Of a stretch of 64,000 bases of DNA, positions 41,888-48,631 are shown one piece after another. The notes beneath the pieces were generated by a model. That model worked only from the letters and a program-made list of their open reading frames with translations, searched no databases and was not told the DNA's origin. Numbering within the stretch: the first letter of the stretch is position 1; every line of letters starts with the position of its first letter. The DNA is from Ruminococcus sp. GTDB taxonomy: Bacteria; Bacillota; Clostridia; Oscillospirales; Ruminococcaceae. Position numbers and translations under genes: made by a program. The stretch lies in contig JAISHJ010000007.1 in NCBI GenBank assembly GCA_031262625.1, positions 516 through 64,515 of the forward strand, in the 5' to 3' direction.

Positions 41888-43578
41888 TAATTTACCTTGA
41901 AGACGTTTGCTTGTTCGGTCAGGTTTGATGAAGTTTCCTTTAGTTCCACCGACAGTGTATTAATTTTATCTATATCATTGAGGTTTGAAGCTAAGACATT
42001 GGAGAGGTTGTCAATATCGCGGTTTATTGACTCAATCGTAAGGTTGAGTTCCCTCATTTCGCTTGAAAGTTCAAGAATACCTGAATTAGAAGCCTTTACG
42101 TTGTCGGAAATCTTATCAAAATAGCTTTCAGCTTCCGAACAGACCGCCGCACCGGCAACGGCTTTCTCAATCGTGATGGAAATAAGTTTCTGACTGTCCT
42201 TAGCCGCCTGTGCACTCTTTGCGGCAAGGTTTCTGACTTCCTCCGCAACGACAGCAAACCCTTTTCCGTGAGCTCCTGCACGCGCCGCTTCAACCGAAGC
42301 ATTAAGTGCTAAAATATTGGTCTGAAAGGCAATATCGTCAATAAGCTTAATTACCGAGCCGATCTGCTGACCTGATTCTTTTATGTCCGAGACAGCGGAG
42401 GAGAGTTCCTCCATCTTTTGCTTGCCTTCATCGGTAACGTCAGCGGTTTTCATGCAGTTTTCAGCTTCAGTTTCAGCTTTTCCTGCAATGTTATTGATTT
42501 CTTTTTGGAAATCAGTTGTTGTTTCCTTAATAAGTCCGACAGAATGCACACCGTCATTTGCGTTTACGGTAAATTCTTCCGTTGCTCTGTCGAGGTCGTA
42601 TGTATTGCCGCCGAGGGAAGAAGCGTACGCGGTAATCTTTCCGATTAACTCGCGAAGGGATTTCTCCATTGCCGCAAGCGATTTTCCGACAATATCGTTT
42701 TGGGTCCGCACTTCAATCTCCGCAGTAAGGTCGCCGGAAGCTATCCGACTGATTTCGGAAGACTGTTTTTCGTCTACTTCAATAAGTGCGGCAAATGAGC
42801 GTTTAAGTTCTGAAATTTCGTTATTACCGGTGATTTCGGTGATTTTTACTCCGAAGTTTCCGGAAGCAATCGCCTTCGCGAAGCCTGTAAGTTCCTTTAT
42901 CGGCGCGGCAATTTTCCGACGGATTAACGCTGATATGACAATTATTTCAATAATAAGAAGAGCAATCGCACTCGCGGTGCTTACAATTACAAAACTCGAC
43001 ATTTCGTCGTAAACCTGTTCAATAGACATATCAAGTCCGACACCTGCGACAACCTTGCCGTCTGAATTTCTTACCGGAGCATATCCCGAAAGACACATTC
43101 CGTAATCGCCGCTGTCATATATTCCGCCGTGGTAATATTCGCCTCTGCCGATAACGGAATCGAATAATTCTGTATCGAAAACATCGGCGGAATCCTCTTC
43201 CCAAAAGGGAATTGTGCCGTCACGGTCGTCGGCGGACATATAGTAGTGGGTATTTCCGTCGTCGTCAACAGGCGCCATTACGTAAAGATAAATGGCGTTA
43301 TTTGCTTCAAGCGTAGCAAGAGCGTTGTCAAGGCTTTTTTTCTGTGCTTCCCAAGCCGATAATTTTTCGGGAGGAATTTCCCCTGCGGCGATAATTTCTT
43401 CCGCAAGATCGCCGTCAATAAATGCCGCCGCACTCATTGCGCACATTTCGGCGGTATACCCGACAGAATCAGTCTCCATATTATAAGATGCAATGGTTGT
43501 AATAATTATGAGCATCAAAGCAGTAAGAATAATAGCTCCCGCTGATATGACGGTTACCATTTTAGAAACTGAATTCAT
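41887..43578 (-). CDS. Methyl-accepting chemotaxis protein (Cache-like sensor, HAMP, MA domain)
   Basis: An N-terminal TM and extracellular sensor are followed by a second TM, a HAMP domain ([20 protein letters not shown]) and the signalling hairpin ([45 protein letters not shown]). Confidence 0.9.
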
Positions 43579-43766
43579 GTGCTTACCTCAAATTAAATAA
43601 AATATCTATAATTATTATATAATATTTTAATTTAAATGTCAAGTTTTTTTGTAATATAAACTATAAATTTATGTAACAAATTAAAGGAATAAATGCAAAT
43701 CCTAATAAAATACTAACAAAAATTTGATTGATTTTTGTTAATACTAAACAAATTTTGAATTAACTA

Positions 43767-43795
43767 TTGACAATCCCGCAAAATAATGTTATACT
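43767..43795 (+). promoter_or_regulatory. Near-consensus extended -10 promoter reading antisense into the recombinase gene, toward the switch and downstream operon
   Basis: TTGACA (43767-43772), then N17, then TATACT (43790-43795), with TGT immediately upstream of the -10 (TGnTATACT). It overlaps the recombinase stop codon. Confidence 0.5.
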
Positions 43796-44373
43796 GACTC
43801 GAAACCATAAGTCAGCTTTTTATAAGCAAGATTTTTATCTTCCTGCGTTATTCCGATGTATCGGCGTGTTATGGCGAAGGACGAATGGTTGTAGATATCC
43901 ATAATTACCGCAAGCGAAGCCCCTTTTTTCCAAAGGTGGTAACCGAAAGTCTTCCGGAGAGTGTGGCACGAAACGGGAACATTTACGCCGGCATTTTTCG
44001 CGGCAGTCTTTAGTATACGATATGCCTGAATACGGCTTATCGGGTGCGGACGAGTAGGGTGAGAAAATACATAGTCGTGAGACGCGGGCGAGGTTTCCTT
44101 AAACAGCATAATAAGGCAGTCCCGCAAAATCGGATTTACTGCTACGATTTTATGCTTTTTGGTCTTTTTTTCGATGATTTCAAATTCTGCACGGAGTTTG
44201 CCGGTCTCGAAATTATAAATATCTCCCCAACGCAGACGTAAAATATCGCTTATCCGAAGCGCTGTAAAGATTCCGAACTGAAAAAGCGCAAGGTTCCGGC
44301 GTTCTTTTCTCGAGGCAAAGTAGGAACAAATCATTTTAATCTGGCGTTTATCGCGGATGGGTTGCGTAGTCAT
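43789..44373 (-). CDS. Small (194 aa) catalytic-core-only tyrosine recombinase (invertase-like)
   Basis: The product contains RNLALFQFGIFTALRISDILRLRWGDI (catalytic Arg) and CHTLRKTFGYHLWKKGASLAVIMDIYNHSSFAITRRYIG (HxxR ... H ... Y). There is no N-terminal arm or core-binding domain. An AAGGAG RBS precedes it. Confidence 0.85.
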   Translation of the reverse strand: MTTQPIRDKRQIKMICSYFASRKERRNLALFQFGIFTALRISDILRLRWGDIYNFETGKLRAEFEIIEKKTKKHKIVAVNPILRDCLIMLFKETSPASHDYVFSHPTRPHPISRIQAYRILKTAAKNAGVNVPVSCHTLRKTFGYHLWKKGASLAVIMDIYNHSSFAITRRYIGITQEDKNLAYKKLTYGFESV

Positions 44374-44398: not shown

Positions 44399-44427
44399 AA
44401 TGTAACAGTTTTCATAAACTGTTACAT
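44399..44427 (+). repeat. Recombination site 1 (lox-like: inverted arms around an asymmetric core)
   Basis: AATGTAACAGTT-TTCATA-AACTGTTACAT. It is the exact 29-bp reverse complement of site 3 and lies 26 bp upstream of the recombinase start codon. Confidence 0.75.
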
Positions 44428-44452: not shown

Positions 44453-44481
44453 AATGTAACATATTTCATAATCTGTTACAT
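44453..44481 (+). repeat. Recombination site 2 (same orientation as site 1, three mismatches)
   Basis: AATGTAACATAT-TTCATA-ATCTGTTACAT. Its own arms extend to TAAATGTAACA/TGTTACATTTA. Confidence 0.65.
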
Positions 44482-44505
44482 TTAACAACTTTTCAAAGAT
44501 ATAGA

Positions 44506-44530
44506 ACAGGCGGTTTGCCTGTCTTTTTTT
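44506..44530 (+). terminator. Rho-independent terminator inside the putative invertible segment (plus-strand oriented in this assembly)
   Basis: ACAGGC-GGTTT-GCCTGT followed by CTTTTTTT. Confidence 0.7.
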
Positions 44531-44601
44531 ATTTTCCTGACGTTATTTGCGAATTAATTCAAATATTATGTAGGCTTAGGTATATACTAACACGGACAAA
44601 C

Positions 44602-44649
44602 GCCGTCAATGTAACAGTTTATGAAAACTGTTACATTGACGGCTTTTTT
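44602..44649 (+). terminator. Site 3 plus GC clamp plus T-run: recombination site doubling as a strong intrinsic terminator
   Basis: GCCGTCAATGTAACAGTTT-ATGA-AAACTGTTACATTGACGGC (19-bp stem) followed by TTTTTT. The inner 29 bp (44608-44636) are AATGTAACAGTT-TATGAA-AACTGTTACAT, which is the reverse complement of site 1. Confidence 0.7.
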
Positions 44650-44724
44650 GTGCTTATAGGGAATTATATTCTTATTATACACATATTTAGGAAATATGTC
44701 AAGTGAAATCTGGAGGATATAACA

Positions 44725-45543
44725 ATGGGAGCATTTATAATTCCGGATAACGAATTATATCATATGGCTAATAATCTTGAAAGTAGTTACGGATGGGGAC
44801 TATCAAACGAAACTGTTGCTAAAATACATCAAGGTATACTTTATATGCAAATCGTTCTCGGTTTACATAATTCTTCGCTTTACAGAAAAGCCATGGCAAT
44901 TAAAGAAAAAGAGTTTATGGACGAAGCGATAAATGTTAACCAAGAAGACAGACACAAACGTATCCGAAAAGTGAACTTTTGGTTCACTTTGTTATGGATA
45001 ACTGCAATTGTATCTTTATTCTTTGGTGTTATATTATCGTTATATAAACCTGCACAATTTCTCGGAGGAATAATTCTTCTGCTTTGTCTGTTATGTATTT
45101 TAGGTGCTATAGTAACCGCAATTATAAAGCTTATTCTTAAAGGCAGGGCAAAAAAAGACGAGAAAACAATTTCATATTACAACAGAAAAATATCAGAATT
45201 TAACCCGATGGATCTTATGAACTTATGTTCAAGAATTATCTATCTCAATATGCAATATGACTTTGATTTATCTGTGATATGTGATAAACTCGGAGTTTCG
45301 ACTTCAGCTATGCGTACGAATTTTAACAAGGCTTCCGGCGGCGGAAGTACATGGATTGGCGGTGGAAGTCTTGGTCTTGTAGGTCTTGGTCTCGGTCTGA
45401 CTGCAATCAGTAAACTAAATGCTGCTGAAAAAAATTCACAATTCAACAGCAGAATGCAAGTGCTTCAAAGTTATTTGTTTTACAATAACGTAGCTGAATA
45501 TTTTAATAACATAGAACAACAATTGTACTACAATAATAGATAA
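44725..45543 (+). CDS. Hypothetical membrane protein (two central TMs, Gly-rich C-terminal segment)
   Basis: A GGAGG RBS precedes it. The TMs are FWFTLLWITAIVSLFFGVILSLY and GGIILLLCLLCILGAIVTAII. The Gly-rich stretch is GGGSTWIGGGSLGLVGLGLGL. I recognise no family. Confidence 0.6.
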   Translation: MGAFIIPDNELYHMANNLESSYGWGLSNETVAKIHQGILYMQIVLGLHNSSLYRKAMAIKEKEFMDEAINVNQEDRHKRIRKVNFWFTLLWITAIVSLFFGVILSLYKPAQFLGGIILLLCLLCILGAIVTAIIKLILKGRAKKDEKTISYYNRKISEFNPMDLMNLCSRIIYLNMQYDFDLSVICDKLGVSTSAMRTNFNKASGGGSTWIGGGSLGLVGLGLGLTAISKLNAAEKNSQFNSRMQVLQSYLFYNNVAEYFNNIEQQLYYNNR

Positions 45544-45560
45544 AATTTTGGAGGATTATC

Positions 45561-45890
45561 ATGAAAAAAAGGTTTTTCGCAATTTTGGCAATGGTTTGTC
45601 TGACATTAATACTTTTGACTGCGTGCGGTGGACTAAGCGGTACATACATCTATGTCGGTGACAGTTACGGCATTTTAGGGAGCGAACTTGAGTTTGACGG
45701 AAACGAAATGAAATGGGGTTACAGTGTCACTAAATATAAAATCAAAGGCGATGAATTCAGACTGGTAGATTCAATATCAGAAATAAGGTTCAGCTATTCA
45801 AAAAAAGGGGATTCAATATTTATTGACGAAAATGAATATGCAAAGGAAGGCTCAGATCGCCATAAAGAATGGGAAGACGAGCAGGAATAA
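45561..45890 (+). CDS. Hypothetical small lipoprotein
   Basis: The signal peptide and lipobox are MKKRFFAILAMVCLTLILLTACGG. A GGAGG RBS precedes it, 17 nt after the previous stop. Confidence 0.6.
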   Translation: MKKRFFAILAMVCLTLILLTACGGLSGTYIYVGDSYGILGSELEFDGNEMKWGYSVTKYKIKGDEFRLVDSISEIRFSYSKKGDSIFIDENEYAKEGSDRHKEWEDEQE

Positions 45891-45927
45891 GGTCAGCAAT
45901 CTATAATTATATGAAAGGCATTTTACT

Positions 45928-46716
45928 ATGGATGAAAAAATTGAAGTTAAGGCTGTAGAAAAGACAGCTCCGGATGAACCCTCTTCCGTACCTAACGCAC
46001 AACCTACAGAACAACTTGCAGAAAAGCCTGTAGATAAACCAAAGCCTATACTTCCTCAAATAAAACCGGAAGAATCAAAGTCGTTTTTACTGCAATTTCT
46101 GAAAAATCCGGCAGCAGCACTTCAATCCGGTGCACTCGGCTTGACGGAATGTTTGATCACTTTAGGGGTTCGTACAATCGGTCTGGTCGTCTTAATGGTA
46201 TATTTCAAGTCTTTATATTTCGACTCGGAATATTCAGACTATTTCGGCGATATTTATAACGAGTATATTGGTATGAGCGGCGATTTTACAAAATCATACA
46301 CGCTTTTGTCCGGTGCGGCTGAAATGGTTATCTCGTTAACCCAAAATGAATACGTTGCAATAATTTTCGGCGGTTTATTCATGTCCTTGATGCTTAGCAT
46401 TGCTCTATACATATCATCTTTTCTGTTTGGCAAAATAATATTCAAAGGCAAAACAGAACCTAAAAAGGGTTTAGTTAATCTTTTTACAGGCATAGAATCG
46501 GCATTACTTCCATTTACAGTGTTGTTCTTAATTGCTGTTTTTGTAAATATGTTTTCGCCGGTTTTTGCAGTAATACTTTCTCTTATTGGTTTAATTTTCA
46601 GTATATGCGTTTGCTTTTCAGCTTATATGAAAATATTTAATATTGATATCAACAAGGCGGTGTACACATCAGTACTCAGCTTTTCAACACTGGCAATTAT
46701 TCTAACGGTGTTTTAG
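45928..46716 (+). CDS. Hypothetical polytopic membrane protein with Pro-rich N-terminal tail
   Basis: The N-terminus is PDEPSSVPNAQPTEQLAEKPVDKPKPILPQIKPEE, followed by about 5 TMs. The topology is loosely Yip1/DUF-like, but no motif was identified. Confidence 0.55.
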   Translation: MDEKIEVKAVEKTAPDEPSSVPNAQPTEQLAEKPVDKPKPILPQIKPEESKSFLLQFLKNPAAALQSGALGLTECLITLGVRTIGLVVLMVYFKSLYFDSEYSDYFGDIYNEYIGMSGDFTKSYTLLSGAAEMVISLTQNEYVAIIFGGLFMSLMLSIALYISSFLFGKIIFKGKTEPKKGLVNLFTGIESALLPFTVLFLIAVFVNMFSPVFAVILSLIGLIFSICVCFSAYMKIFNIDINKAVYTSVLSFSTLAIILTVF

Positions 46717-46927
46717 CCGTGATATTATAACAACGGCACAATAACCTTCAAATCCACCAGAGCAGGCACAGTAGCACTCTCTATCACAAGCGCAAACTAA
46801 GTTCAACATAATATTCAGTATTCATTCCAACAAAAAATGCCTCATATGAGGTATTTTTTGTGGTAATATACTGCTTAACGAAAATACAAACGCCCTGTAG
46901 TGAAGTACCACAGGGCGTTTTAGAGTA

Positions 46928-47330
46928 TGGAGATGACGGGAATCGAACCCGTGTCCGAGAACATTTCAGGAGGGTTTTCTCCGGGCGCAGCACCGATTCA
47001 AAGTTCCCGACAGCGAGGGTATCGGCACAGACCCTAACCGTCGGTAGCCTGTAATACGTTTTTCGGTTACAGGCGTATACCGAAAAACGTGGACTGCTTT
47101 TGTCTCGCCTGTCGGAAGCCGCAGTACTCAACCGATTTCAGACGCCGGGGGTTAAAAAACGCCCGGAACTGCTAACTTACGCACGGTTACCCGCGCAATA
47201 AGTTAGGCAGCCATTAACTGAGGTTGTTCGTCGTTTAAATTTATAAACGTAGCGCATCGTTTCGGAGATAAGCGCAATCCTCCGCCCGCTTACCCAACTT
47301 ACGCTTCCCCGTCGAAACCTTTACATCCCC
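46928..47330 (-). ncRNA. ssrA: tmRNA (ssrA)
   Basis: The minus strand starts GGGGATGTAAAGGTTTCGACGGGG and ends GGACACGGGTTCGATTCCCGTCATCTCCA. This is a tRNA-Ala-like acceptor with a G3:U70 pair. An internal tag-like frame reads ...AAC GAC GAA CAA CCT CAG TTA ATG GCT GCC TAA. A terminator hairpin ACGCCCTGT...ACAGGGCGT lies just downstream at about 46890-46920. Confidence 0.9.
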
Positions 47331-48278: not shown

Positions 48279-48631
48279 AGTTTCCCCTTGATCAGCAGTA
48301 AAAATATAATAAGCGGCGGGCGGTAAATAACCGTTACCGCCGCGAAATATGCAATATCTCCGCCTTGCCGCCGTACGACATATAAACCCAGCACTACGCC
48401 AGGGTGGGTTTTGCCCCGTCTGCTTCGCGCTCCCTGCATCCGTTCCAGAACGGCTTTACACCATTCAGTGCGCTTTGCCCCCGCTCATTAAGAGAGGGAA
48501 AAATCCCTGTCCGCAGGCGGCAATATAACGCCTCCGCACATCTAATGCGGCGGGAGGTCTGCAATCCGCAGTCGGAGTGCAAATCCCTTTTACAATTTGT
48601 TGGATTATAAAAATCGAACTCAATCGTACAA
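48279..48631 (-). ncRNA. Promoter plus ~320-nt GC-rich structured leader (riboswitch/attenuator candidate, class unassigned)
   Basis: On the minus strand, TTGTAC-N16-TATAAT lies at 48631-48604. A GC-rich stretch follows, holding only Arg/Pro-rich junk ORFs on both strands, two GGGGCAAA(A) motifs and many local stems. A terminator-like hairpin GCGGCGGTAA-CGGTTA-TTACCGCCCGCCGC followed by TTATTATATTTT (48305-48345) comes next. The RBS and the ATG at 48278 follow. Confidence 0.5.

Follow-up and report, generated by a model that had tools for sequence, protein, structure and literature searches.

A putative invertible terminator upstream of three probably acquired envelope genes in Ruminococcus sp.

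Three consecutive genes for cell-envelope proteins, here called P1, P2 and P3, lie at positions 44,725 to 46,716 of the stretch analysed, a window of 64,000 nucleotides (nt) from contig JAISHJ010000007.1 of a Ruminococcus sp. assembly (GCA_031262625.1), with a small tyrosine recombinase gene and inverted repeats upstream of them and the gene for transfer-messenger RNA (tmRNA, ssrA) beyond their far end. The arrangement raises the question as to whether the three genes are controlled by DNA inversion, whether they were acquired from elsewhere and what their products are likely to do. Our analysis makes it reasonably probable that they form a switch-gated, acquired envelope operon, a general statement that does not extend to an anti-phage role.

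The recombinase gives weak matches to FimB/FimE-type invertase models and has no N-terminal DNA-binding domain. Beside its gene lie three recombination sites (S1, S2 and S3, Table 1) of 29 nt each, with 12-nt inverted arms and an asymmetric 4-nt core, S1 and S3 being 100% complementary over the 29 nt, and both the sites and the recombinase were found at this locus only in the 1.35-Mb assembly. A consensus scan detected no plus-strand promoter of at least 9/12 between S3 and P1 (44637-44724), and a single good promoter was seen on the plus strand ahead of P1, TTGACA-N17-TGTTATACT, about 930 bp upstream, from which transcripts would cross the recombinase gene antisense. On inversion in silico by S1xS3 or S2xS3 the S3 terminator is lost and the internal terminator (44505-44532) is reversed toward the recombinase, so that in either case no canonical plus-strand terminator is left and the internal hairpin persists with a weak, U-poor tail. 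The perfect-consensus promoter on the minus strand (44674-44702) and the plus-strand promoter (43767-43795) converge, with the recombinase gene and the switch lying between the two, and an invertible terminator in this interval would therefore choose between transcription of the recombinase and of the three downstream genes, which we refer to as the cargo. Read in this way the layout predicts that in the assembled orientation the cargo is OFF and the recombinase leader open, and that in the flipped orientation the cargo is ON and the recombinase leader terminated.

Table 1 Coordinates of the operon, its putative switch and neighbouring landmarks (window positions)
Feature	Coordinates	Strand	Description
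Promoter-like site	43767..43795	+	TTGACA-N17-(TG)TATACT, 11/12 with TG; overlaps recombinase stop codon; candidate operon promoter
Tyrosine recombinase	43789..44373	-	194 residues, catalytic domain only; PF00589 3e-26; phrog_216 4e-52
Recombination site S1	44399..44427	.	12-nt inverted arms, core TCAT
Recombination site S2	44453..44481	.	core TCAT; 90% identical to S1
Intrinsic terminator within invertible segment	44505..44532	+	predicted hairpin and U7; faces cargo as assembled
Second terminator (site S3, 44608-44636, core ATGA, plus flanks)	44598..44653	+	predicted 19-22-bp stem and U-run; -33.4 kcal/mol, z = -9.9; faces cargo
Promoter, perfect consensus	44674..44702	-	TTGACA-N17-TATAAT, 12/12; points from cargo through switch to recombinase gene
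P1	44725..45543	+	272-residue membrane protein; soluble N-terminal part, transmembrane hairpin, C-terminal GGGSTW-G-G glycine zipper then NNVAxYFN helix
P2	45561..45890	+	109-residue lipoprotein; modelled 8-stranded lipocalin-like barrel and C-terminal helix
P3	45928..46716	+	262-residue polytopic membrane protein; disordered Pro/Lys/Glu-rich N-terminal tail; weakly Yip1-like
Bidirectional terminator closing the operon	46824..46867	.	A6-hairpin-U6; inverted repeat I8; -25.5 kcal/mol, z = -6.5
tmRNA gene	46928..47330	-	ARAGORN; Rfam 120 bits; neighbour and landmark, outside the module

The same design recurs in a cassette of a second assembly from the genus, Ruminococcus sp. Hm464_bin28 (L018, G003:C21). 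There a 63% identical recombinase is accompanied by three sites with the same core polarity and by a hairpin with a T-run, of different stem sequence, at the position and in the orientation of the internal terminator, and the extended cargo-proximal site is kept and then followed by CGGCTTTTTTGT. Promoter-like sites are found at the recombinase stop (10/12) and, as TTGCAT-N17-TATAAT, at the position aligned to the 44674-44702 promoter. Conservation of the design across 63% recombinase identity is, as far as sequence comparison goes, the best evidence here that the arrangement is a functional one.

More distant recombinase homologues have different genes beside them. In Clostridiales bacterium Firm_18 (L019:86-4660, LVAX01000063.1) a 57% identical recombinase with paired TGTAACA/TGTTACA sites is accompanied by a very AT-rich cargo, namely two GTPases of the dynamin family (616 and 636 residues; Dynamin_N 5e-27 and 3e-12) and a 253-residue coiled-coil protein. 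This cargo may amount to a phase-variable module of dynamin type with a role at the membrane or in defence. In L037 (L037:858-6712, G212:C19) the small recombinase is 48% identical, is divergent from a Tad/Flp pilus operon (T2SSE, two T2SSF, TadE) and has one perfect palindromic site, CAGGTAACATATT-AGAG-AATATGTTACCTG, and in a Lachnospiraceae contig (L021:5001-7635, JAZQOO010000042.1) csrA and a flagellin gene follow immediately after the gene for a 41% identical small recombinase. Inverted sites were verified for L018 and L019 only among these loci. The neighbours of the recombinase homologues at all four have surface or envelope functions.

All three cargo reading frames are intact. The intergenic gaps are 17 nt between P1 and P2 and 37 nt between P2 and P3, with no terminator predicted in either, and the ribosome-binding sequence GGAGGA stands 8 nt upstream of P1 and also ahead of P2. 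On this basis P1-P2-P3 is probably one accessory operon of cell-envelope proteins. A preliminary description of this DNA, made from the letters alone, had proposed a three-gene operon under a putative switch, and its gene positions match our open reading frame (ORF) list exactly, its lengths and protein types agreeing with that list and with the topology. Its distance of about 210 bp from the operon end to the tmRNA 3' end was likewise close, the P3 stop (46716) lying 212 bp from that end as placed by ARAGORN and Rfam. Control by the switch is borne out at the level of sequence logic by the missing promoter between S3 and P1 and by the two terminators that face the cargo as assembled, both of which are gone when the segment is inverted in silico.

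In order to place the cargo within the composition of its genome we used a reference set of 915 non-overlapping ORFs of at least 150 residues from the 1.35-Mb assembly (67% complete), in which the GC content is 0.453 +/- 0.034 and the GC content at third codon positions (GC3) is 0.462 +/- 0.055. The GC content of P1, P2 and P3 is 0.338, 0.379 and 0.369 respectively, that of the window being 0.433. GC3 is 0.282 for P1, which is the 0.1 percentile of the 915 ORFs and the second lowest value in the genome, 0.373 for P2 (5.9 percentile) and 0.338 for P3 (2.2 percentile). The recombinase gene by comparison has a host-like GC3 of 0.467 (54th percentile), so that the foreign-looking part is the cargo and not the entire block. 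The AT-richness that the preliminary description had judged by eye is thus real, and more pronounced than it had stated. A similar contrast between recombinase and cargo is seen in L018 (GC3 of 0.48 vs 0.30-0.32) and in L019 (0.57 vs 0.26-0.31), whereas the more distant homologue L037 breaks it with a recombinase gene that is itself AT-rich (GC3 0.28). Judged from composition, the cargo is foreign and was probably acquired horizontally.

The three products differ in how far they can be followed beyond this genome. P1 has hydropathy peaks at about residues 86-106 and 112-136 and carries the segment GGGSTWIGGGSLGLVGLGLGL at residues 205-225. A word-seeded search of 5.8 billion proteins returned a single relative, of 33% identity, and an exhaustive HMMER search of 1.84 billion representatives, seeded by P1 and that relative, returned 48 clusters at E <= 1e-3 and 16 at E <= 1e-30. 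The family has an N-terminal motif, IPVISDN..L..L.N..E.GF, a variable transmembrane (TM) hairpin and a strongly conserved C-terminus, ICxKLGxDPxExK..GKVxGGGSTxxGWGSxGAVGxGIGLSAISK..A..KN...N.RI..LE...FYNNVAxYFN, the latter being kept across the 48 clusters down to about 25% identity; such conservation indicates that the family is under selection rather than junk. Some members have in addition an N-terminal zinc ribbon, a C-terminal DUF4190, further TM segments or WG repeats. A member-by-member Pfam scan matched DUF2207_C (PF20990) over the TM hairpin in 7 of 18 members, a weak similarity below the cut-off that may reflect hydrophobic composition alone. All four contexts of P1 relatives that were fetched (L029-L032) contain the P1 gene alone, with neither a recombinase nor TGTAACA sites. 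In L029 it adjoins a DUF218-like gene and an HlyD/ABC/FtsX set, in L030 it is fused to a zinc ribbon, and in L031 and L032 it adjoins genes that we took, by eye, to be nuclease-like and an XRE-type regulator respectively. To judge from these searches the P1 family is rare and is described in none of the libraries searched.

At the end of the N-terminal signal peptide of P2 is the lipobox LLTAC|GG (MKKRFFAILAMVCLTLILLTAC, Cys22), which conforms to the [LVI][ASTVI][GAS]C pattern and whose cysteine is retained in the P2 homologues. Two of these are encoded in L018, one a 103-residue lipoprotein with 42% identity and the other a 237-residue lipoprotein of which the first 110 residues match at 38% (tblastn 5.6e-15 and 8e-14). 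The word-seeded search of 5.8 billion proteins returned no relatives of P2 or P3, and it also missed the L018 homologues of P2. Within a sample of 300 genomes of the family P2 was found in five. Four genomes out of 300 further ones from the family have more distant, P2-like lipoproteins encoded by stand-alone genes; the recombinase was found in none of those four at E <= 1e-25. An AlphaFold model of P2 from a three-sequence alignment has eight strands arranged as a barrel and a C-terminal helix (predicted local distance difference test score, pLDDT, 79.6; predicted template modelling score, pTM, 0.68). Its best Foldseek matches are small lipocalin-like lipoproteins, namely YedD (4hwm; LptDE-YedD complex 9fz5), Streptococcus pneumoniae SP_0198 (3ge2, 5cyb) and Tannerella potempin E (8ehc), with E-values of 0.055-0.8 and none <= 0.001, probabilities of 0.87-0.98, target-normalised TM-scores of 0.41-0.53 and identities of 11-16%. 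P2 resembles these proteins in being a lipobox lipoprotein of about 87 mature residues with a modelled 8-stranded barrel, and differs from them in having no sequence-level relation; given this and the weak E-values no function can be transferred from them to P2. Among predicted viral structures, lipocalin folds of phage lipoproteins match the P2 model weakly (best E 0.029). Sequence searches of the PDB with P1 and P2 profiles returned nothing.

P3 is rich in Pro, Lys and Glu over residues 1-55 and has hydrophobic segments at 70-94, 141-172, 182-239 (two TMs) and 244-262. It is found in two of the 300 family genomes, the lone relative being a 305-residue protein in G003, the genome that also carries L018, with a Pro-rich tail and about five TMs (BLASTP 2e-16, 28% identity). 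The gene for this relative, whose tail is Gln/Pro-rich, has no switch and lies between a 121-residue opposite-strand gene, presumably MazF/PemK-like as judged by eye, and rplM-rpsI (L003:360-1911, G003:C57); rplM is not assembled in the source genome (G000).

The preliminary description recognised no family in any of the three proteins, and nothing scored above threshold for P1-P3 in Pfam, NCBIfam, PHROGs or PADLOC. Nor are they conserved core genes, since P1 was found in none of 40 relatives of the source genome and in an order-level sample gave at most one weak, TM-only match in 400 genomes, with P2 and P3 as rare as the family counts above indicate. Linkage of the trio to the recombinase in other genomes, which had been put forward as a check, holds in part: the closest homologues of P2 are cargo of the L018 switch, and the four contexts of P1 relatives and the relative of P3 are without a recombinase. 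By this comparison the trio is not a conserved module; its three envelope genes, each rare and confined to particular lineages, make up a mosaic.

If the operon is switch-gated, the recombinase would flip a segment of about 130-210 bp between its sites and only those cells of the population that carry the segment flipped would express the operon. In such cells transcription would read through into P1-P2-P3 and that of the recombinase would be lowered at the same time, as the internal terminator in its flipped position would stop transcripts starting at the perfect-consensus promoter beside P1 within the recombinase leader. The products would be located at the cytoplasmic membrane, P1 as a protein with two to three TMs whose glycine-zipper segment would probably drive oligomerisation, P2 as a lipid-anchored, lipocalin-like barrel on the outer face and P3 as a Yip1-like helical bundle, and together they would alter a property of the envelope that is costly to express constantly. 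As to the specific role, phage exclusion at the envelope is the one we prefer, although we hold it only as a tentative possibility. In Clostridioides difficile cwpV is controlled by a 195-bp invertible segment downstream of its promoter that acts by terminator formation, with about 5% of cells ON (PMC2784873), and CwpV blocks phage at a post-adsorption step (PMC4737114). We favour such a role on account of this parallel and because exclusion genes are typically small and AT-rich and encode membrane proteins or lipoproteins.

Several points weigh against this reading of the locus, in its general form or in the specific role. PADLOC-DB 2.0 contains no family that matches P1, P2, P3 or the recombinase at E <= 1, and relatives of P1, P2 and P3 were absent from phages (tblastn, 50,697 records), plasmids (tblastn) and IMG/VR. 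The promoter and terminator assignments are consensus matches only, and in L018 a promoter of 11/12 stands between switch and cargo, so that gating may be leaky there. The low GC3 of the cargo could stem from relaxed selection on a rarely expressed operon and not from foreign origin. In addition the trio is not a conserved unit, as relatives of P1 and P3 occur without switches, and the structure model of P1, built from two sequences, is poor (pLDDT 52.8), so that the idea of a glycine-zipper oligomer comes from sequence alone.

Some of the evidence on P1 and P3 could be read in another way, with the operon conferring resistance or immunity to antimicrobials that act on the envelope, bacteriocins or peptide toxins for instance, working with or like a MacB/YknXYZ-type exporter, and with phase variation spreading its cost. 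P3 and its homologue in G003 align to most of the Yip1 model (PF04893) at E 0.003 and 0.012, and in Bacillus subtilis the YknXYZ exporter has a Yip1-domain protein, YknW, as its partner. In the L029 context (L029:4568-9171, JGI994J12354_10004662) the P1-family gene lies 267 bp upstream of genes for an HlyD-like membrane-fusion protein, an ABC ATPase and an FtsX-type permease, a MacB/YknXYZ-like layout, and small lipoproteins are common immunity proteins. The Yip1 scores of 18.0 and 16.0 bits are however below the Pfam gathering threshold of 28.6 bits and may reflect only hydrophobic composition, the exporter is present in one P1 context and missing from the other three, and neither an exporter nor a bacteriocin gene occurs in the module of the window. 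We therefore regard an immunity module as unlikely.

The related cassettes lend themselves to a wider proposal. Their cargo consists of the present trio in the window, two lipocalin lipoproteins in the congener and, in another relative, two dynamin-like GTPases along with a coiled-coil protein, and the unit could be seen as a phase-variable gene-capture platform. The recombinase and its three-site invertible terminator would on this proposal be a resident, host-like 'expression dock' whose slot is repeatedly refilled with foreign, AT-rich envelope or defence genes, and the trio would be a new, membrane-acting phage-exclusion system built around the glycine-zipper family. Taken as a whole we think this improbable.

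The state predicted for the assembled DNA bears on a further explanation, according to which the cargo is silenced, decaying foreign DNA that is held OFF by tandem terminators and has no present function. The assembled (majority) orientation is indeed the one predicted to be OFF, the AT bias is extreme and the codon fit poor, and P2 and P3 are almost without relatives. Decay is however difficult to reconcile with three intact frames and good ribosome-binding sites for P1 and P2, with a C-terminal motif of P1 that is kept in 48 clusters to about 25% identity, with retention of the P2 family as cargo in a diverged cassette of the same genus and with a switch, promoters and terminators that are conserved in design, and we give this explanation little credence.

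Least of all do we credit the hint in the preliminary description that the position next to ssrA marks an island integration hotspot, in which case a mobile island inserted at ssrA would have carried the block in, with the small recombinase as the integrase of the island, and the nearness of the tmRNA gene would be meaningful. The distance of 212 bp between the block and the tmRNA 3' end, the deviant composition of the cargo and the lack of the block in relatives would all suit an island, as would the course of synteny: two same-genus genomes share dnaX-recR-tRNA-Gln-MCP with the window up to the MCP start (43578-43596) and past the MCP run into a nonulosonic-acid/glycan cluster. There is however no att repeat, the longest word common to the ssrA 3' region and the block being 9 nt, which is chance level (shuffles mean 9.5, max 13). 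The recombinase, at 194 residues and lacking the N-terminal DNA-binding domain, is invertase-like and host-like in composition and stands at the far end of the block from ssrA, 2.5 kb away, and its sites are the switch itself, all three lying within one intergenic region with inverted polarity. The related cassette in G003 is moreover not at ssrA and no such block lies downstream of the G003 tmRNA gene, which is in a different neighbourhood with unrelated housekeeping-type genes downstream. A prophage remnant was rejected, there being no phage genes nearby and no phage homologues.

The genomes compared within the genus are rearranged at the MCP gene. The orthologous MCP gene directly follows the glycan cluster with a 12-nt gap in two same-genus genomes (L015:1-9250, G002:C13), and by eye we take this cluster to comprise neuB/neuC-like genes, three radical-SAM genes, a glycosyltransferase and a DegT aminotransferase; the 67%-complete source assembly contains nothing of the cluster that flanks the MCP gene in G002. 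On the other side of the block, argH in the window leads to a GC-rich element (48279-48631), a mini-MCP and the tmRNA gene. The same-genus argH contigs end before the tmRNA region, in two assemblies (L054, G004:C61:174-1574; L055, G001:C2:186-1586) about 175-185 bp beyond the argH stop, and these contig breaks suggest a repeat or variable region there.

Should the operon be switch-gated as we suppose, three uncharacterised envelope protein families would gain a testable ON/OFF context. The three closest cassettes differ in their cargo, and in each of them the cargo is AT-rich and the recombinase host-like, which suggests that in uncultured gut Clostridia such switches act as landing pads for surface or defence genes acquired from elsewhere. 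Such a role, if true, would help to account for the tolerance of foreign envelope genes that are costly to the cell. As matters stand the locus is probably one more phase-variable envelope operon. What our analysis adds is the contrast in composition that sets the cargo apart from the recombinase, a definition of P1 as a family, the link of P2 to a sister cassette and the rejection of an ssrA island.

Two known systems invite comparison. Prophages encode membrane proteins and lipoproteins for superinfection exclusion, Ltp of Streptococcus phage TP-J34 and Llp of T5 being examples. The trio resembles these in that its genes are small, AT-rich and poorly conserved and encode membrane or lipid-anchored products that would act at the envelope, and is unlike them in having no sequence relatives in phages or IMG/VR, no prophage genes nearby and a fold match that is generic and not significant. 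The closer parallel is the cwpV locus (Cdi1, RecV). As is predicted for the present locus, a short invertible segment there separates the gene from an upstream promoter (195 bp, compared with about 130-210 bp in the window), control is by an orientation-dependent intrinsic terminator rather than a movable promoter, the enzyme is a tyrosine recombinase, the cargo is an envelope protein and the majority state is OFF. The two differ in that the recombinase here lies beside its own switch, with sites unique to the locus in the assembly, whereas RecV is encoded elsewhere and serves several sites; in that the present locus has three sites, two terminators and promoters facing each other across the recombinase gene; and in the cargo, which consists here of three small membrane and lipoprotein genes without similarity to CwpV. 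By the design that can be read from its sequence, the operon belongs with the cwpV-type phase-variable envelope operons gated by an invertible terminator.

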